Shown here in pieces: positions 15,775 to 42,526 of a stretch of DNA of 64,000 bases; positions within the stretch are counted from its first letter, which is position 1, and every line of letters starts with the position of its first letter. Location: assembly GCF_030013205.1 (NCBI RefSeq), contig NZ_CP122648.1; one strand, 5' to 3'. This stretch comes from Escherichia coli (GTDB taxonomy: Bacteria; Pseudomonadota; Gammaproteobacteria; Enterobacterales; Enterobacteriaceae). The translations under genes and the position numbers were made by a program. A model generated the notes under the pieces. That model was not told the origin of the DNA and did not search any database. It saw only the letters and a list, made by a program, of their open reading frames with translations.

Positions 15775-16970
<1,196 letters not shown>

Positions 16971-26152: not shown

Positions 26153-27676
26153 TTAAATGCTGGCGAACGCCATTGCCACTTCTGTAAAGCGCGATGTATA
26201 CGTGTTTCTGGTCTCCGTCCTCAGATAGGGATTACCTTCGGGTAGCCGCCAGCGGAACAGCTTCTTGCCTTGCCCCACCAACCGGTACAGTATTTCGCCG
26301 CTGAGCTTGCCGTGATTGGTTTTACCAAATAAAACCCACGTTTTGCTCTGACCCGGTTTCGGTGATTTACACCACCACCTCATCAGGGAAGCGATACCTG
26401 TACGGTATTTGTGGGCCAGCCAGTGAGCCAGCTTCCAGAACACGACACGGTCGATATAACTGAAGACTTTGGCCTTAAAATCAACGAACTGATAGAACAT
26501 GGCCCAGCCTTTCAGTTTTCGGTTGAGTTGTTCAGCCATATCGACTTTGCTTTCACTGTAGTTGCCTGATAACAGTGCTGTCAGCGATGCGGCGAAGTTT
26601 CTGGCTTTCTCCTGCGGGATCGTTGAGACCACTCGCATCTCGCCATAACGACTGCGTTTGCGAATGATCCTGTGCCCCAGAAAGATAAAGCCGTCATTAA
26701 CATGGGTGATTTTAGTCTTATCCATGTTCAGCCTGAGTTTCAGACTGCCTTTGAGCACACCCCGACACTCCTCCCTGATGGCTTCCGCCTGTGCTTTGGT
26801 GCCTTTGACGATGAGGACAAAATCATCGGCATAGCGGCAGTACGCCACCGCGGGTTTCCACTGCCAGTTTTCTCTGACCGCCGTACTTCGGCCCCGTTGG
26901 ATACTGTTATTCCAGTACCACCGATCTTTTCTGGCTTTCCCGCTCAGGTAGCGCTCATGCAGGTATTGATCGAACTCATTCAGCATGATGTTCGATAATA
27001 GCGGCGATATAACACCGCCCTGTGGCACACCTTCACTGGCCGCCCGAAAGAGACCGACATCGATATGTCCCGCCTTGATGGTTTTCCACAGCAGAGTCAT
27101 GAAACGTGCGTCACTGATCCTGCGGCGTACAGCCTTCATCAGCAGTCGATGATGTACGGTGTCGAAGTAACTGGACAGGTCGCCTTCAATCACCCAGCGT
27201 CCCCGGGTTTCACCACAGTCTGTGAGCTGTAATTTCACCGTGCGGATCGCGTGGTGGACACTGCGCTCAGGCCGGAAGCCATATGAGAGCGTATGAAAAT
27301 CACTCTCCCATATCGGCTCCATCGCCATCAGCATGGCCCGCTGAACAATACGATCCCGCAACGCGGGGATACCCAGTGGTCGCAGTTTGCCGTTGCTTTT
27401 AGGGATGTAAACCCGTCTGGCGGGCAAGGGCTGGTAGTGGCCTGAGAGTAATTCATCCCTGAGGATTTGCAGCTCAACAGCCAGTCTGGCCTGTAGCATT
27501 GTTTTGTTCACGCCATCAACGCCGGGGGTATGGGCCCCCTTTGATGAAAGCGTGATCCGCGCCGCTTCAGCCAGCCATTCTGGTTGTGTTATCAGACGCA
27601 GCAGCCGTTGAATCCGTAGGGACGGATCGGTGGCTGCCCATGTGGCAAGCTTGCGTTGCATTTCGCTGATTATCAA
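26153..27676 (-). CDS. Group II intron-encoded reverse transcriptase/maturase
   Basis: 507-aa ORF with RT motifs incl. YADDFV; no HNH-type endonuclease cysteine motifs seen at C-terminus. Confidence 0.85.
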   Translation of the reverse strand: MIISEMQRKLATWAATDPSLRIQRLLRLITQPEWLAEAARITLSSKGAHTPGVDGVNKTMLQARLAVELQILRDELLSGHYQPLPARRVYIPKSNGKLRPLGIPALRDRIVQRAMLMAMEPIWESDFHTLSYGFRPERSVHHAIRTVKLQLTDCGETRGRWVIEGDLSSYFDTVHHRLLMKAVRRRISDARFMTLLWKTIKAGHIDVGLFRAASEGVPQGGVISPLLSNIMLNEFDQYLHERYLSGKARKDRWYWNNSIQRGRSTAVRENWQWKPAVAYCRYADDFVLIVKGTKAQAEAIREECRGVLKGSLKLRLNMDKTKITHVNDGFIFLGHRIIRKRSRYGEMRVVSTIPQEKARNFAASLTALLSGNYSESKVDMAEQLNRKLKGWAMFYQFVDFKAKVFSYIDRVVFWKLAHWLAHKYRTGIASLMRWWCKSPKPGQSKTWVLFGKTNHGKLSGEILYRLVGQGKKLFRWRLPEGNPYLRTETRNTYTSRFTEVAMAFASI

Positions 27677-31373: not shown

Positions 31374-32032
31374 GGTAATGACTCCAACTTACTGATAGTG
31401 TTTTATGTTCAGATAATGCCCGATGACTTTGTCATGCAGCTCCACCGATTTTGAGAACGACAGCGACTTCCGTCCCAGCCGTGCCAGGTGCTGCCTCAGA
31501 TTCAGGTTATGCCGCTCAATTCGCTGCGTATATCGCTTGCTGATTACGTGCAGCTTTCCCTTCAGGCGGGATTCATACAGCGGCCAGCCATCCGTCCTCC
31601 ATATCCTGTCATACGCGTAAAACAACCAGCGCCGACGTAACCCCACTGTTCGTCCATTTCCGCGCAAACAATGACGTCACTGCCCGGTTGTATGCATGAG
31701 TTTACCGACTGCGGCCTGAGTTTTTTAAGTGTCGTAAAATCGTGTTGAGGCCAACGCCTATAATGCGTGCACTGGCGCGACATCCGACGCCATTCATGGC
31801 CATATCAATAATTTTCTGGTGTGTACCGGGCTGAGAGGCGGTGTAAGTGAACTATAGCTGCCATGTTTTACGGCAGTGAGAGCAGAGATAGCGCTGATGT
31901 CCGGCAGTACTTTTACCGTTACGCACCACGCCTTCAGTAGCTGAGCAGGAGGGACAACTGATGGAGATGGAAGCCACGGGAGCACCTCAAAAACACCATC
32001 GTACACTAAATCAGTAAGTTGGCACCATTACC
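31374..32032 (-). mobile_element. IS1 copy with ~109-bp internal deletion (659 bp vs 768 bp), insA/insB degenerate
   Basis: IS1 termini GGTAATGACTCCAACTTA... and ...CATTACC; 9-bp target duplication GGCAATGTA on both sides (31365-31373 and 32033-32041); InsB reads [15 protein letters not shown], lacking an internal segment. Confidence 0.85.
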
Positions 32033-33280
32033 GGCAATGTATTATTTAAACTGTAATAATTTAATTTTAGGATGTGTAGCAGCAGCCCGATACAGAGTTG
32101 CAAGGACACACTTTTGCCAGAGGGCGTTACAGGAAAGCTTAATGTTTGATTCTGTATACATAATAAATCACCTTATAGTTACAATAGGTCAAAAACCGCT
32201 GTAGCCAAAGTTACGCTGGCCTGATGCTTTAGTGTCGAACTTCGTCAAATAATCCAGACGTACCAATAAGCGCTGGTACTGCTCTGGGAAATCAGGATCG
32301 TTAATATCCAGGATGTAACGCCCATTAGTAGGGAAATGAACTAATCCCTGGTGATCTTCCAGTTCCAACCCTAAGGCACTGTACCAGGCTCCGGTAATTA
32401 ACCCTCTCAGGGTGTCAGAGCGCTCATAGTCTCCCAGGTGGTAATAGGCGTCTTTGTTAAACAACAGGCAGACGTGATAATGACATTTAAAGGACTGTGT
32501 ATATTCTTTCGCCCAGATAATACAAACCGACGTTGCGTAGGTGCGTTTGCCTTATTGTTTTTTACGGTGTTGATCTGCATTAATTTTCGCATTCAGCGAG
32601 TTACGGAAACGAGATATCTCTCCGGGGATCAGGTTAGGGAAACAGGTAATGGTATCCCCGTTGTCAATCACAGGAGGGTAATGGAGATCCACCCGTATTG
32701 CTGTTATTCTGGAAGTATTTTTAATATTCGTATTGATAGTTCTCAGAGATATATCACACTCTAGATATTTTAATTAAGTATCAGTTCGATATCGGCATAT
32801 TGTACACTACCTCAGGTAGATGATGAGATCAGATACAGGGATCAACTGACGGTGAACGCAGTTCCCACATTTTATCCAGGGCTTACTGCATATTCCCAAC
32901 AGCCATTCGTTAGCCAGGTAGACGAATACCCTTTCCGCTGGTTTTGCTTTCCCATCGAAGGGCCCATACATCATCACGCCCGCGAAACAACCGACGAAAT
33001 AATGCAACCTTCTCGTCGGTGGATAATACGAAAACGCACTGCACAGGGCTCTGCGGTTTACGTCACCATTCAATCCCATGAGCTTCAAGTTATGTTTGCC
33101 CTTAGTGCAGCTAATTCATCATTGTCAGATTTATGAACTATATGCGTTACCTGTACCTGCCCCACGGGGTACCACCACAGAAGATGAAGTGTCATAGTCC
33201 CCTGCGCTGAGGACAAAACTACGCATTAACGACAAATCCACGCGATAACTTACGATGGTTCGGGCATAAGCCCCCGTAAT

Positions 33281-35053: not shown

Positions 35054-35653
35054 TCATCGAGGATCTGACTGGTTGTTTTTAGTATCATCACCACAAATGA
35101 TGGTTAATGCGTTGTAGATCAGTCTGCGTCTGTTCTTGTTTTCAGCATTATTTCCATACAACATCATGACGTTTTTAATATCATCAACCGGTGATATTAC
35201 ATAATCAACCAATACGCCAAGCTTCTCAATACATTGCAGTAAAGTATATTTGTGTCTGCCCGTAAATAATCCTATCAGGTTTTCTTTACTTTCACGACTG
35301 GATAATATTTTGTTCTCTGTAATTAATTCAGCCAACGTTTCACCATCGTAAACACGTTCTTTATCTATCAGAATATTTATCTTATCTAACGCCCTCTCTA
35401 CATTATCAAGAAGACCTGTAATATACGGAGGCTGAATATCTGACTTTGTACTAATATTTGCAAGCATCGAATTATACATTTTAATGATACGCATCAGAGT
35501 AAAATTATTCGCATCATATTGTATTTCATCTTCATTATACGCAGGATCCGTCACGACCCTTAAGTCCATAAATGCATCCTGATAAGCTTTTACATAATCA
35601 AGTAATTCGAACAGTGAACCATGCTTTATTTTCTCCCTGTTTAATTTGATCTC
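35054..35653 (-). pseudogene. Unknown AT-rich gene, C-terminal part (codons ~409-607) separated from its 5' part by IS2
   Basis: Reading frame continues EI-KLNREKIKHGSLFELL... across the IS2 target duplication; see 36990-38213. Confidence 0.7.
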
Positions 35654-35744
35654 TAGACTGGCCCCCTGAATCTCCAGACAACCAGTATCACTTAAATAAG
35701 TGATAGTCTTAATACTAGTTTTTAGACTAGTCATTGGAGAACAG

Positions 35745-36110
35745 ATGATTGATGTCTTAGGGCCGGAGAAACGCAGACGGCGTACCACACAGGAAAAGAT
35801 CGCAATTGTTCAGCAGAGCTTTGAACCGGGGATGACGGTCTCCCTCGTTGCCCGGCAACATGGTGTAGCAGCCAGCCAGTTATTTCTCTGGCGTAAGCAA
35901 TACCAGGAAGGAAGTCTTACTGCTGTCGCCGCCGGAGAACAGGTTGTTCCTGCCTCTGAACTTGCTGCCGCCATGAAGCAGATTAAAGAACTCCAGCGCC
36001 TGCTCGGCAAGAAAACGATGGAAAATGAACTCCTCAAAGAAGCCGTTGAATATGGACGGGCAAAAAAGTGGATAGCGCACGCGCCCTTATTGCCCGGGGA
36101 TGGGGAGTAA
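35745..36110 (+). CDS. insC: IS2 OrfA (InsC)
   Basis: [41 protein letters not shown]... Confidence 0.9.
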
Positions 36111-36973
36111 GCTTAGTCAGCCGTTGTCTCCGGGTGTCGCGTGCGCAGTTGCACGTCATTCTCAGACGAACCGATGACTGGATGGATGGCCGCCGCAGTC
36201 GTCACACTGATGATACGGATGTGCTTCTCCGTATACACCATGTTATCGGAGAGCTGCCCACGTATGGTTATCGTCGGGTATGGGCGCTGCTTCGCAGACA
36301 GGCAGAACTTGATGGTATGTCTGCGATCAATGCCAAACGTGTTTACCGGATCATGCGCCAGAATGCGCTGTTGCTTGAGCGAAAACCTGCTGTACCGCCA
36401 TCGAAACGGGCACATACAGGCAGAGTGGCCGTGAAAGAAAGCAATCAGCGATGGTGCTCTGACGGGTTCGAGTTCTGCTGTGATAACGGAGAGAGACTGC
36501 GTGTCACGTTCGCGCTGGACTGCTGTGATCGTGAGGCACTGCACTGGGCGGTGACTACCGGCGGCTTCAACAGTGAAACAGTACAGGACGTCATGCTGGG
36601 AGCGGTGGAACGCCGCTTCGGCAACGATCTTCCGTCGTCTCCAGTGGAGTGGCTGACGGATAATGGTTCATGCTACCGGGCTAATGAAACACGCCAGTTC
36701 GCCCGGATGTTGGGACTTGAACCGAAGAACACGGCGGTGCGGAGTCCGGAGAGTAACGGAATAGCAGAGAGCTTCGTGAAAACGATAAAGCGTGACTACA
36801 TCAGTATCATGCCCAAACCAGACGGGTTAACGGCAGCAAAGAACCTTGCAGAGGCGTTCGAGCATTATAACGAATGGCATCCGCATAGTGCGCTGGGTTA
36901 TCGCTCGCCACGGGAATATCTGCGGCAGCGGGCTTGTAATGGGTTAAGTGATAACAGATGTCTGGAAATATAG
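36068..36973 (+). CDS. insD: IS2 OrfB transposase (InsD)
   Basis: 301-aa DDE transposase ORF overlapping insC. Confidence 0.9.
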
Positions 36974-36989
36974 GGGCAAATCCAATCTC

Positions 36990-38213
36990 CAGCGCTATCC
37001 TGAGAACTGAAAAAGCGCCGGGAAGATACCCAGAAGGTAACTCGTATTTTGGGGATTCATCATAAAACCGAAGAGCTTTGTGGAGTTTGTTCCGCCGAAT
37101 CAGATAAATAAGGACGGCCAGTAACATGTAGCACCTGGTCACATAACCACGGGCATTCTGCAACTGTTCAAAATAATTAATAATGTTTTCCAGATATACA
37201 TCATCATAACTTTTCTTATCAGAAAGATTAAACACCATATCTTTTAAAGATTCGATATATTCTTGTGATTTATCATCAAGTGACACAATATAACGAGTTA
37301 ATGCTCCTTTGGGGCCACTCTCAAACTCATGAAACCGTTCAAGTAATGCTCTTGCATAAGGCGTTGTGTCAAAAATATTAAAATCATAAAGATAGCGTGC
37401 AGCGTAGCCATACAACCCATGTACCCAAAGCCCTTCTCTTATCAGCACTCTGAGATAATATGCAATACTGTCAAGTATCTTTACCTTCCGTTGCATATCA
37501 AGCAAAATACTTAATGAATAAAATGCATAATAGAACTTGTCAATGTTGTTGAGTATTCTGTCCAGCTCACTCTTATCAAGCTTCTTCTCTCTGTAATCCT
37601 TCTTGTATTCATTCTTACAGGCCTTTATATATTGTTTCATAAGGCTCTTCCTTTTACCGTACCCTTTTCGAATAGTCCCCTGGTATTTTCCCAGCTCATA
37701 CATTTTTCCGTTTTCCCGAAAATCTTCTCTGTTAAATCCCAGTTCAGCAAGATACTCCCGGAGATAACGTTTAACGGCAGCCTCATCGCTTTCTGTACCA
37801 GAGTAATCCAGGCAGGGACAATATGATTTTTGCAAAAAATTATAGATATGATAATAAAACCCTGTTTCATTCTCCGGACGATATGTGTTATATATATCCA
37901 GAACAATAAAAACAACTCCAAAGCTTTTCAGAAAATAGTTACGGATATATTCGGACTTTAATGTTGAATACACAGGGTAAGAATTCATCATGTAATAAAA
38001 ATATTCATACCGGGAAAATATAATTCGCCGTTGTTCCAGACTATACACCCCTTCAGCATCAATAATGTGACTGAGCTCATTATAACGTTGATCCCAGAAT
38101 CTTTGATGCGCTCCAAAATCAGTACTCTTCCGCTTATCTCTCGGACTCTCTCCTTCCTTAAACAACTCAAAAACTGTACAAATATCATACAAAAGATTTG
38201 TAAACATGCGCAT
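36990..38213 (-). pseudogene. Unknown AT-rich gene, N-terminal part (codons 1-408), interrupted by IS2; divergent from alpA
   Basis: Long K/Y/N-rich ORF MRMFTNLLYDICTVFELFKEGESPRDKRK...; no family recognised by eye. Confidence 0.7.
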
Positions 38214-38301
38214 CTGCTCTGATCTCCGGTTGGTTTCCGTTTTATCACAGGGGACATTCTGGCCTTAACGTAGCAAATTAATGACATAGCCTTCAACTCA
38301 C

Positions 38302-38562
38302 ATGGAGAACAATATGTCAACCCAGACCGGACATTTTTATACCCCCTCACGCATCCTGCGTATGGCTGAACTTACCCGACTCCTTGGTATATCAAGATCG
38401 ACCATCTACGAAAAAATGAATCCGGCATCAAAATACTACGATGCCACCTTTCCCCGGCCTGTCCGGCTTGGGAGTTCGGCTGTAGGCTGGCGGGCATCTG
38501 CCATTGATGAGTGGTTAACTTTACATACAACACCAACCAGATCCGTAACTAAGGATAAATAA
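38302..38562 (+). CDS. alpA: AlpA-family phage/island transcriptional regulator (MerR-like HTH)
   Basis: ...ILRMAELTRLLGISRSTIYEKMNPASKYYDATFPRPVRLGSSAVGWRASAIDEWL... matches the AlpA pattern; true start may be an internal Met. Confidence 0.75.
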   Translation: MENNMSTQTGHFYTPSRILRMAELTRLLGISRSTIYEKMNPASKYYDATFPRPVRLGSSAVGWRASAIDEWLTLHTTPTRSVTKDK

Positions 38563-38577
38563 GGAAAACTGTACGCC

Positions 38578-39678
38578 ATGACAAAATTATCCCCCCCTGA
38601 ACTTGACATAACTAAACTGCCTGACAGGTGCCAGGCATTACTTGATGAAATGCATGAAGAAACGGGAATAAGCCGTGAAATACTGCTGTCTGTTATGCTG
38701 ACGGTCAAGGCTGCCTCGGTCCAGGATACGCATGAAGTTGAACTTTCTGGAGGGCAGCGTACCAGTCTTCAGATATATATGTGTCTTTCATCAGCATCAG
38801 GCAGTGGAAAAACCTCTGCCTGCGCAAAATTAATCGCCCCTGTTCATGAAACAGAAGAAGAACTACATCAGGCATATATCGACGATAAAAAAAACTATGA
38901 TCGCATGATGGAAATGTGGACAACAGATAAAAAAATCCTGGAGCGGAGATATAAAAAGGAAATGGAAAGATCCCCGGAAAATGCTGCTGCTGCACGAGCA
39001 GCGCTTGAAAAGTGTATAGCAAATAAACCCGTACCTCCCGTACAACAGGTTCTCATCGTGAATGACGCGACACCAGAAGGGATAGCTTTGAAACTCAGCC
39101 AGTCACCTTCTCTTCTGTTGCTGTCTGATGAAGGAGGAACTATTCTGGATAAGCGTTTCGAACGCAAATCGGCGCTGTACAACACATTATGGAGTGGGCA
39201 ACCAGTCACCGTAGAACGGGCATCCAGACCCGGGTTCCGGGTAAAGGATTCCCGTCTCACTATGCTTATACTGACTCAACCGGTAATATTTGATAAGTTT
39301 TTTACTCTCACTGGCGACCAGATCCGGGGCAATGGCTTTCTGGCCCGGGTGCTATTTTGCGAACCCGGAGCAAATAAAATAATGACGACAGAACCGCATA
39401 CTGCCACTCCTGTTGTAACGCAGCAATGTGCAACCTGTTTTCATGAGAAAAGTTTTGGCAGTCAGATCAGAGACTCTCTGAGAGCGTCCCGGGAAAGGCG
39501 TGCAAAAGGTGAGCAACGCATCCGCATGACATTATCACACGCAGCATCCCACGATCTGGAAATCTTTCACGAAGAAAATATGAGTGCCGTCAGGCAGAAC
39601 CCACGTATGACCACTTTCGAAGACATTATCGTCAGGAAAAGAGAACAGGCTGTTCGAATAGCCGCACTTCTGGAGCTG
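38578..39678 (+). pseudogene. YfjI-like (DUF3987-type) island protein, 5' part, interrupted by IS1
   Basis: Follows alpA as yfjI does in CP4-57; frame resumes after IS1 (ALLEL-ENNPHG...). Confidence 0.6.
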
Positions 39679-39693
39679 GGTAATGACTCCAAC

Positions 39694-40197
39694 TTACTGA
39701 TAGTGTTTTATGTTCAGATAATGCCCGATGACCTTGTCATGCAGCTCCACCGATTTTGAGAACGACAGTGACTTCCGTCCCAGCCTTGCCAGATGTTGTC
39801 TCAGATTCAGGTTATGCCGCTCAATGCGCTGAGTATAACGCTTGCTGATAACGTGCAGCTTTCCCTTCAGGCGTGATTCATACAGCGGCCAGCCATCCGT
39901 CATCCATACCACGACCTCAAAGGCCGACAGCAGGCTCAGAAGACGCTCCAGTGTGGCCAGAGTGCGTTCACCGAAGACGTGCGCCACAACCGTCCTCCGC
40001 ATCCTGTCATACGCGTAAAACAGCCAGCGCTGACGTGATTTAGCACCGACGTAGCCCCACTGTTCGTCCATTTCAGCGCAGACAATCACATCACTGCCCG
40101 GTTGTATGCGCGAGGTTACCGACTGCGGCCTGAGTTTTTTAAGTGGCGGAAAATCGTGTTGAGGCCAACGCCAATAATGCGTGCACTGGCGCGACAT
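39694..40197 (-). CDS. insB: IS1 InsB
   Basis: 167-aa [30 protein letters not shown]... Confidence 0.85.
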
Positions 40198-40391
40198 CCG
40201 ACGCCATTCATGGCCATATCAATGATTTTCTGGTGCGTACCGGGCTGAGAGGCGGCGTAAGTGAACTGTAGTTGCCATGTTTTACGGCAGTGAGAGCAGA
40301 GATAGCGCTGATGTCCGGCGGTGCTTTTGCCGTTACGCACCACCCCGTCAGTAGCTGAACAGGAGGGACAGCTGATAGAAACAGAAGCCAC
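40116..40391 (-). CDS. insA: IS1 InsA
   Basis: 91-aa [46 protein letters not shown]... Confidence 0.85.
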
Positions 40392-40446
40392 TGGAGCACC
40401 TCAAAAACACCATCATACACTAAATCAGTAAGTTGGCAGCATCACC

Positions 40447-40920
40447 CTGGAGCTGGAGAACAATCCACATGGTACAGTAATAACACGAGAAAGTATCAAT
40501 AGTGCTATTTATCTCGTTGATTTTTATTTTCAGCATCTTATATCCAAACTGGAATCACTTCGGGAAATATCTCCTGCAGAAAAACTGGATAAATGGCTCA
40601 GAGAAAATATCATCCGGGTAAAAGGATACGAATATCAAAAAAGCCATATACTACAATATGGTCCATATGCTCTCAGGAATAAATGTGTTCTTGATGAAGC
40701 ACTTGATATACTTGCAGAACAGAAAAAAATCGTAATTGATTATTCAATCGGCCAAAAAATCATTTATATCGGTGACGCGATTACACCTTGTGAATTAGCA
40801 AATGAGGCAAACATCCCGATAATGGAACGTGGAATGTTTATAGTCTGTTGGGACCATAAGCTGAATAAGTACAGAAATGAAGAACAGACTAAAATATGGA
40901 ACATAACTACAAAAAATTAA
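40447..40920 (+). pseudogene. YfjI-like protein, 3' part after IS1
   Basis: In-frame continuation to a stop at 40918-40920. Confidence 0.6.
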
Positions 40921-40964
40921 AATTCCCGTCTTTTATCATTCAGTTACCAACCTGATTATCTGAA

Positions 40965-41005
40965 ACAATGCCAGACATCGGTTACAGACTGGCATTGTTT
41001 TTATC
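40965..41005 (+). terminator. Hairpin (caatgccag...ctggcattg) followed by T-run
   Basis: 9-bp stem inverted repeat then TTTTTATCATT, seen 3' of the yfjI-like gene. Confidence 0.5.
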
Positions 41006-41143
41006 ATTCAATTTATAAACTACAATATTACGTATTATTTTTATATTTATGTCATTGCAAATATCAGACAAACAAGCATTATAACTCAATAAGTATATTT
41101 TTCGTGATTACAGACGGCATCTGCAAATCTGTGAGATGTGATT

Positions 41144-42352
41144 TCATCGCTGGTTTTCCATAATCTGAGACATCACATAATCCGCCCATGCCTGCATCAT
41201 CGGTATACGCTGATCCAGCAGATCAGTCCGGTGATATGCCGCCTCAACCTTATTTTTCAGCGTGTGGGCAAGCGCCCTTTCCGCCAAATCCCGCGAATAT
41301 CCCTGTTCGCTACACCAGTCCCTGAATGTTGAACGAAAACCATGTGCTGTAGCCACTCGTCCGGGTATATCACTGATGGCCTTCTTTTTACGCAGAAAAC
41401 TCGTCAACACCATATCTGAAAGGATCTGCTGCTTTCTGGGAGAAGGAAACACCAGTTCGTCATGCAGACCACGTATATTTTCCAGAACGTGAATGGCCTG
41501 TCGGGATAAAGGAACACGATGCTGTATCCTGGCTTTCATTCTTTCTGCGGGTATCGTCCATATCCGCTTATGAAAATCAATTTCAGCCCAGCGCATTCCC
41601 CTTGCCTCGCCCGAGCGGGTTGCTGTCAGTATCACCATTAATAACAGTGCCCGGGTAACATTATAAGGTTCATCTGTATACACACTGGTCGCCACAAAAA
41701 GCGGTAACTGCCTCCAGGGCATTGCCGGCTGGTGTTCATCACGTCCTCTTGATTGCTGTGGAAGCAAATGATCAACCACATCAACAGGATTCGCCACACA
41801 AAAACCATGCGCCCAGCCCCACTGCATAACAACATGAATGCGCTGTTTAACCCGGCTTGCCGTTTCTGACAAGGTTAACCAGACTGGACGCAGTGTTTCT
41901 GCCACGTCCGCAGCCGTAATCGAATCCAGCGTTTTTGCTCCCAGTTGAGGAAACGCGTAATTCTCAAGCGTCGATAACCACTGCCTTACATGCTTTGGAT
42001 TTTCCCATCCAGGAGACAATTCTGCATGTACACGCCGGGCTGCATCGGCAAATGTTGGGATAACAACTTTTTCAGCTTCAGCCTTTTTAATCTCCAGAGG
42101 ATCATCACCTGCAGCAAGTTGCTCTCGCATTATCCGGGCAGTACGTGCAGCTTCAGCAATACTGACCTCAGGGTAAGTTCCCAATCCAGCATTACGCCTT
42201 TTTTGTGTCACCGGACTTACATAACGAAAAACCCATTTACCCCTCCCCTTTACTGAAGAAGGATGAAGAGTCAGTCCTGTAATTCCCCCATGGGGCAATG
42301 GTTTGTCATCAGGTTTGATATGCCTTGCTTTAGTATCCGTCAATACTGCCAT
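41144..42352 (-). CDS. Tyrosine site-specific integrase (P4/CP4-type)
   Basis: 402-aa ORF with phage-integrase-like N-terminal region and C-terminal catalytic-domain-like H..R...Y spacing; adjacent to the att repeat. Confidence 0.85.
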   Translation of the reverse strand: MAVLTDTKARHIKPDDKPLPHGGITGLTLHPSSVKGRGKWVFRYVSPVTQKRRNAGLGTYPEVSIAEAARTARIMREQLAAGDDPLEIKKAEAEKVVIPTFADAARRVHAELSPGWENPKHVRQWLSTLENYAFPQLGAKTLDSITAADVAETLRPVWLTLSETASRVKQRIHVVMQWGWAHGFCVANPVDVVDHLLPQQSRGRDEHQPAMPWRQLPLFVATSVYTDEPYNVTRALLLMVILTATRSGEARGMRWAEIDFHKRIWTIPAERMKARIQHRVPLSRQAIHVLENIRGLHDELVFPSPRKQQILSDMVLTSFLRKKKAISDIPGRVATAHGFRSTFRDWCSEQGYSRDLAERALAHTLKNKVEAAYHRTDLLDQRIPMMQAWADYVMSQIMENQR

Positions 42353-42512: not shown

Positions 42513-42526
42513 CCCCCTCACCGCCA
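42513..42526 (+). repeat. attR-like direct repeat of the tRNA-Ser 3' end (ccccctcaccgcca)
   Basis: 14-bp match to 5489-5502 in the same orientation; marks the distal island boundary. Confidence 0.7.

Follow-up and report, generated by a model that had tools for sequence, protein, structure and literature searches.

The stretch of Escherichia coli DNA analyzed here (64,000 nucleotides, hereafter the window) contains a gene for a YfjI-like, DUF3987-containing protein that is present as two fragments separated by an IS1 element, which raises the question of how the gene came to be split and what the interruption removed from its product. The 5' fragment (38578-39678, plus strand) carries codons 1-367 and is annotated by PGAP as a pseudogene 'missing C-terminus', and the 3' fragment (40456-40920, plus strand) carries codons 368-521 followed by the stop codon. 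We consider it very likely, at a probability of roughly 0.93, that a functional non-consensus copy of IS1 transposed into the YfjI-like gene of an island integrated at serX, and that this explains the locus as a whole.

The element between the two fragments extends from 39679 to 40446 and is thus exactly 768 bp long, as the original prediction had it; PGAP labels it 'IS1 family transposase' (WP_236281370.1) with a programmed frameshift. Both extremities are canonical IS1 ends without a single mismatch, namely IRR, GGTAATGACTCCAACTTACTGAT, at 39679-39701 and IRL, GGTGATGCTGCCAACTTACTGAT, at 40424-40446 on the minus strand, and in shuffled sequence zero matches to these terminal repeats are expected by chance. 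The placement of the GGTGATGCTGCCAACTTACTGAT end on the minus strand implies that the element lies in the minus orientation. It is abutted on both sides by perfect copies of a 9-bp target-site duplication, CTGGAGCTG, the left one (39670-39678) corresponding to codons L365-E366-L367 and the right one occupying 40447-40455; this duplication, too, had been predicted, and the probability that 9 bp agree by chance at a given position is about 4e-6. In the alleles of sister strains with an empty site CTGGAGCTG occurs only once. As the base G follows each 9-bp copy, a 10-bp duplication bordering a 767-bp element is formally possible; we rejected this partition since the canonical GGT... end favors the reading with 9 and 768 bp.

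The coding capacity of the element is likewise complete, in line with the earlier claim of intact insA and insB. The insA gene (40116-40391, minus strand, GTG start) encodes the 91-aa repressor with its zinc ribbon (Pfam Zn_ribbon_InsA, E 3e-21) and HTH (HTH_Tnp_IS1, E 4.4e-28), and 87 of the 91 residues are those of K-12 InsA. The insB frame (39694-40197, minus strand) is an open reading frame of 167 aa containing the DDE catalytic part (DDE_Tnp_IS1, E 1.1e-74; 150/167 residues shared with K-12 InsB), which is expressed only as the fusion InsAB'. The two are joined by an intact A6C slippery site (AAAAAAC, 40134-40140, minus strand; positions 307-313 of the IS), where a -1 frameshift yields an InsAB' of 232 aa that matches the full-length profile of the NCBIfam transpos_IS1 equivalog (242.8 bits, cutoff 100). 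A length of 768 bp, the A6C motif and a duplication of 8 or 9 bp are the described hallmarks of IS1 (PMC12428005).

Copies of this isoform at an identity of at least 99% were found in 150 of 9,595 matching records, and the best 40 matches are all 100% identical and all from pig strains, where they lie on both chromosomes and plasmids. Strains with the occupied locus carry additional copies, again 100% identical, on plasmids and at other chromosomal loci such as selB, and IS1 occupies about 13-22 places per genome. The selB copy is common to the occupied strains and to ETEC4068, in which the site studied here is empty, so that a donor existed before the insertion event. For non-consensus IS1 copies of K-12, such as IS1F, transposition is reported to be all but absent (PMC12428005). 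The dispersed identical copies suggest, at the level of sequence, that the present isoform has been active and mobile recently in this lineage.

Excision of the element in silico, together with one copy of the duplication, restores an open reading frame of 521 aa from 38578 to 40920 that is devoid of internal stops and whose product is 100% identical to WP_000164162.1, the DUF3987 protein (521 aa) encoded by the intact gene of ETEC4068. The restored frame of about 521 aa that had been predicted is thus real, and the check named beforehand, excision followed by alignment to the YfjI family, returned an uninterrupted homolog of that family. Over the surrounding locus the excised window differs from ETEC4068 by 2 mismatches in 14,124 bp. 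The YfjI-like identity of the product, also claimed at the outset, is borne out by a match to Pfam DUF3987 (PF13148; E 1.9e-63, 215.3 bits, cutoff 27) that aligns residues 33-395 with positions 4-358 of the 364-position model, and by a BLASTP alignment with K-12 YfjI that runs end to end (residues 11-476 against 9-468; 25% identity, E 3e-45). Additionally, the restored protein matches PHROG 2373 'DNA helicase' (E 6e-41), and its NCBI cluster bears the name 'YfjI family protein'.

A word-indexed search for homologs gave 4 proteins, too few to align, and an exhaustive HMMER search was used instead, which recovered 5,539 representatives of the family (E <= 0.001); these are mostly 470-530 aa long, and their alignments reach residue ~460-495. 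In an alignment of 133 sequences K78, Q234, G253 and R257 are invariant and S74, G75, E185, R360, A384, P437, R441 and L453 nearly so. The conserved positions thus fall into the ranges 74-360 and 384-453, so that conservation extends to either side of the insertion. Searches of the PDB, by phmmer with the 521-aa protein and by hmmsearch with the 133-sequence profile, returned no significant match. Fold comparison pointed to an AAA+ fold closest to that of MCM with a winged helix at the C-terminus; the relationship to MCM rests on the fold and on a published profile-profile comparison, in which DUF3987 proteins are described as replicative helicases related to SF6/MCM with a C-terminal wHTH (PMC4889955). 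Furthermore, AgaPH, in which a PriCT domain is combined with DUF3987, is a 5'-3' helicase dependent on its Walker A and B motifs (PMC11724360). An MCM-like AAA+ fold with a winged helix is thus predicted with high confidence for the product of the disrupted gene, which we take to be a superfamily 6 helicase; by analogy the YfjI-like protein would possess helicase activity. Neither NCBIfam nor PADLOC has a model for this protein or for the product of a neighboring 585-aa gene split by IS2 (see below), and a tblastn search of a phage collection produced one weak match (20% identity), indicating that close relatives are not found among sequenced phages. A search of the literature for YfjI returned no functional data.

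The gene lies near one end of a tRNA-integrated island with a P4-type integrase, for which the tyrosine integrase, the tRNA target and the flanking direct repeats are all present. Only 15 bp upstream of it ends a gene (38314-38562, plus strand; WP_001349431.1) for an AlpA-like HTH regulator (Pfam Phage_AlpA, E 6.9e-19) that is 49% identical to K-12 AlpA, which reproduces the alpA-yfjI pairing of the CP4-57 element. The two genes probably form one operon and would be transcribed together, and the DUF3987 protein would most likely serve the island as its replicative helicase. Downstream, the integrase gene (41144-42352, minus strand; Pfam Arm-DNA-bind_3, Phage_int_M and Phage_integrase; WP_000279862.1) is convergent, so that no downstream gene is affected by the insertion and no polar effect is expected. 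Between the two convergent genes lies a hairpin followed by a T-run (40962-41006; -19.8 kcal/mol, z = -3.15), which may be a terminator; a general scan for promoters and terminators did no better than on shuffled sequence. The target of the island is serX, the gene for tRNA-Ser(GGA), at 5415-5502, whose 3' end (5489-5502) recurs as a 14-bp direct repeat, CCCCCTCACCGCCA, at 42513-42526 on the plus strand. This repeat is weakly significant when taken alone (E 0.046 in the window) and is located 160 bp beyond the integrase start, between int and dgcT, as expected; it is the probable distal att site of an island of ~37 kb.

The cargo of this island includes cbtA/cbeA, a type I R-M system, Hhe, a group II intron, an IS5-like element, IS30 and remnants of IS3. 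A decayed IS1 with its own 9-bp duplication, GGCAATGTA, is found at 31374-32032, and IS2 (35654-36984, 1331 bp) is inserted cleanly, with the 5-bp duplication ATCTC, in the 585-aa hypothetical gene mentioned above, which is intact in CUVM53. As this IS2 is present in both the occupied and the empty-site strains, its insertion preceded that of the IS1. The original prediction had contrasted the clean IS1 insertion with rearranged IS5 and IS3-family elements elsewhere in the island. This holds for the IS5-like element (15775-16970), whose unmatched flanks, TTAG and CTAA, are consistent with rearrangement, but not for IS2, which is a clean insertion too. Given the other IS insertions and the pseudogenes of the island, the helicase may already have been functionally irrelevant before the IS1 insertion.

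To trace the insertion we used positions 38300-41200 of the window (2,901 bp) as a megablast query against 5,426 complete E. coli genomes. The occupied locus is found, identical, in 7 of these, all of them porcine ETEC (ETEC4067, 4069, 4070, 4071, 4079, 1748 and K_EC180); the 1-bp difference in K_EC180 is a change from A7 to A6 in the homopolymer at 38923-38929, either a sequencing error or secondary decay. ETEC4067, whose chromosome differs from the window by 5 mismatches in 50 kb, was isolated in Belgium and K_EC180 in South Korea, and the other five belong to the strain-name and accession series of ETEC4067. The PGAP annotation of the ETEC4067 chromosome gives two DUF3987 pseudogene fragments flanking an 'IS1 family transposase'; a literature search for this strain found no paper. 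The occurrence in both Belgium and South Korea implies that the insertion predates the spread of a putative sub-clone and extends beyond a single strain. One further candidate, CUVM53, had appeared as an independent IS1 insertion with 100% coverage and was rejected, as its IS1A lies on the upstream side of alpA and leaves the DUF3987 gene intact.

The persistence of the insertion through spread to two continents raises the question of whether the knockout was selected. Loss of the helicase could stop replication of the excised island, or a costly activity triggered by AlpA, thereby locking the island in the chromosome with its defense genes (type I R-M, Hhe and CbtA/CbeA). The nature of this cargo would favor such a scenario, as would the Japanese pig strain EC581, in which the same DUF3987 gene was independently cut, at nt 1355, by an element of the IS66 family. 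However, two insertions in a 1.6-kb gene of IS-rich genomes fit relaxed selection equally well. Furthermore, an allele at least 99% identical is present in 167 genomes, and the matches sampled from these mostly contain it as an uninterrupted 1566-bp piece, the IS1-occupied genomes being the exception. We accordingly regard selection for immobilization as improbable. Equally doubtful is the broader combination in which the isoform would represent an IS1 lineage that is carried by plasmids, is actively expanding and is restricted to porcine ETEC and edema-disease E. coli, and in which the insertions in the helicase gene, by IS1 and by IS66 in EC581, would reflect selection immobilizing a defense-carrying island instead of neutral decay.

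The extent of the loss depends on what the interrupted frame still encodes. The IS1 lies between codons 367 and 368, at the end of the helix formed by residues 354-369 and just past the near-invariant R360. The frame runs into the element up to 39759, resulting in a protein of 393 aa, of which 367 are native and 26 are encoded by the IS. The 3' fragment offers no in-frame start codon before 40822, where 32 aa remain to be read, which makes its separate expression unlikely. This fragment encodes the last lid helix (378-402), the winged-helix domain (~405-475) and a helix at the C-terminus, and with the cut after codon 367 and no usable start beyond it all three are lost. The truncated protein could conceivably remain active, for instance by hydrolyzing ATP or by acting as a dominant-negative subunit, in which case the function would have been modified and not abolished. 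It does retain both Walker A (S74, G75 and K78) and Walker B (E185) as well as R257 and R360, which are conserved, all of them upstream of the cut, and most of the AAA+ core (residues ~50-370). Nevertheless, the part that is gone holds the nearly invariant, family-conserved A384, P437, R441 and L453 and the winged helix that is conserved in the family (PMC4889955), and the IS-encoded tail of 26 aa takes the place of part of the lid. Residual activity of the truncated form thus appears quite unlikely, and most probably the YfjI-like gene was inactivated by the insertion.

The direction of the change is indicated by the empty sites. These are recognized by a 2,124-bp match at 100% identity, precisely the length of the query less the element and one copy of the duplication (2,901 - 768 - 9), and among pig strains are found in ETEC4068, 4075, 6333, 6334, 1701, O139:H1 W13-16 and P15-25. 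Were the IS1-bearing allele ancestral, precise excision between the 9-bp repeats would generate exactly the empty site that is observed. Against such an origin, the empty site is present in alleles of at least 99% identity from isolates of pig, human, chicken, dog and water origin, as well as in 90%-diverged alleles, and the occupied site is confined to the 7 near-identical pig genomes. Moreover, precise excision of IS1 is very rare. An ancestral IS1 is on these grounds highly improbable. A recent insertion is supported by the narrow distribution together with the perfect duplication and the identity of the flanks; other copies in these genomes match the IS at 100% identity and the site is empty in sister strains, so that the description of the event as recent and simple stands. 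Least probable of all is an artefact in which a hybrid assembly misplaced an IS1 repeat: multi-copy IS1 elements, which occupy 19-22 places per genome, are a classic source of misassembly, but the same junctions and perfect 9-bp duplication recur in 7 independent complete assemblies from two countries besides the window, and misassembly does not create target-site duplications. Taken together, artefact, later excision, selected immobilization and functional truncation are unlikely or, with the present data, indistinguishable from neutral decay.

Transposition of a functional IS1 into the helicase gene would have proceeded as follows. The isoform is envisaged as circulating among porcine ETEC and edema-disease E. 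coli, on chromosomes as well as plasmids. Its transposase InsAB', produced by the -1 frameshift at A6C, would make cuts staggered by 9 bp at CTGGAGCTG, at the junction of codons 367 and 368; the 9-bp duplication would arise when the resulting gaps were repaired. The outcome would be the 393-aa product with its Walker A, Walker B and arginine motifs, deprived of the last lid helix and of the winged helix and C-terminal helix that follow it. We infer that the event was neutral. It amounts to an ordinary IS1 knockout of a gene for a YfjI-like helicase of MCM fold in a decaying island, a state of affairs already known from the RefSeq annotation, and it accounts for the split pseudogene given there. 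Its significance beyond bookkeeping is small. The junction could provide a clonal PCR marker, with products of ~1.1 kb against ~0.33 kb across 39.5-40.6 kb, for the putative porcine ETEC sub-clone from Belgium and South Korea, and the dispersed identical copies point to a non-consensus IS1 isoform that was recently mobile in this lineage. A modestly useful by-product is the predicted MCM-like AAA+ winged-helix fold for YfjI/DUF3987, a protein listed as uncharacterized in E. coli, which agrees with the published predictions.

Compared with known systems, the element conforms to the IS1 family, as represented by the IS1A/IS1E consensus and by IS1F of K-12, in its 768 bp, its identical terminal repeats, its overlapping insA and insB, the -1 frameshift at A6C giving InsAB' and the 9-bp target duplication. 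It differs from K-12 IS1A by 51 substitutions without indels (93.4% identity) and is closest to copies of the IS1F type (~96% identity), making it a non-consensus isoform; unlike the named isoforms it bears in PGAP merely the generic label of an IS1 family transposase. As one of several IS insertions in the island, the event resembles the IS-mediated pseudogenization seen in decaying islands and cryptic prophages. It is the youngest of them, being absent from sister strains that have the others. Phage-inducible chromosomal islands (PICIs) combine an int-alpA-replication module with packaging or capsid-redirection genes in ~10-15 kb and are induced by helper phages. The present island, in contrast, joins an alpA-helicase-int module to ~37 kb of defense and IS cargo, and we do not file it as a PICI.

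Relative to MCM/SF6 helicases and to AgaPH, the protein lacks the N-terminal OB/zinc domain of MCM as well as the PriCT domain, and its gene adjoins no intact primase gene, an AEP-primase pseudogene being situated at 32816-33141. AgaPH is only a distant DUF3987 relative, and the ATP-dependent unwinding of DNA by a ring oligomer that has been demonstrated for it is predicted here. A further parallel is YfjI of CP4-57 in K-12, which shares the PF13148 domain, the end-to-end alignment and conserved Walker A and B motifs, and which is likewise encoded directly downstream of an alpA homolog in an island with a P4-type integrase. The two proteins are 25% identical, and that of the serX island is longer (521 against 469 aa) and has an extra C-terminal helix. 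The islands differ in that the integrase gene is convergent and downstream here and upstream in CP4-57, and in that serX is the site of integration here and ssrA there.

The IS1 isoform inserted in the YfjI-like/DUF3987 helicase gene (window 39679-40446) encodes the transposase WP_236281370.1, and among the matches listed (H31-H70) IS1 copies 100% identical to this isoform are found only in pig-associated E. coli, where they sit on both plasmids and chromosomes. With all isoforms taken together, strains carrying this insertion have 19-22 IS1 places per chromosome, as against 13-20 in sister pig genomes with an empty site. In K-12, near-immobility has been reported for non-consensus IS1 copies (PMC12428005). 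The window additionally contains a second, decayed IS1 of 659 bp (31374-32032), labeled by PGAP as a frameshifted IS1 pseudogene, which has lost about 109 bp internally, shows 92-95% identity to the main IS1 and is flanked by its own 9-bp duplication, GGCAATGTA.

A gene for a 585-aa hypothetical protein, which has no match in Pfam, NCBIfam or PADLOC, is cleanly interrupted by a 1331-bp IS2 (35654-36984) with a perfect 5-bp duplication, ATCTC. Its fragments lie on the minus strand at 35054-35734 and about 36985-38213, and an uninterrupted copy is present in CUVM53 (positions 4257-6014 of that locus, L003). The IS2 insertion is common to strains with and without the main IS1 and so predates the arrival of the latter.

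In the Japanese pig isolate EC581 (NZ_AP027432.1, L007 4001-8029) an IS66-family element encoding tnpA/tnpB/tnpC has truncated the same DUF3987 gene at nt 1355 in an independent event. In K_EC180 a homopolymer in the 5' fragment (window 38923-38929) is A6 rather than the A7 of the window, and for this reason PGAP calls that fragment frameshifted; the missing A is a sequencing error or else secondary decay postdating the IS1 insertion. A frameshifted remnant of an archaeo-eukaryotic primase gene (32816-33141; 'TOTE conflict system AEP domain' in PGAP) lies some 5 kb away from the helicase gene. Given that AEP primases often partner DUF3987 helicases (PMC4889955), this remnant may be the decayed partner of the helicase.

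Elsewhere in the island, a 1196-bp IS5-like (ISKpn26-type) element (15775-16970) has differing 4-bp flanks (TTAG versus CTAA). On one side of it is an intact hsdR and on the other a second type I M-subunit gene that is truncated, an arrangement suggestive of deletion or recombination mediated by the IS. The island also carries a large Hhe (DUF4011) anti-phage gene (19658-25393), and ltrA (26153-27661), which encodes the reverse transcriptase/maturase of a group II intron, sits within an IS3-family remnant.

The island is bounded by serX, a tRNA-Ser (GGA) gene (5415-5502), and by a 14-bp repeat of the serX 3' end, CCCCCTCACCGCCA (42513-42526). The cbtA/cbeA end adjoins the tRNA and the integrase occupies the tRNA-distal end, 160 bp off the distal repeat. 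CUVM53 has ycdU between int and dgcT, whereas ycdU is absent from the window.
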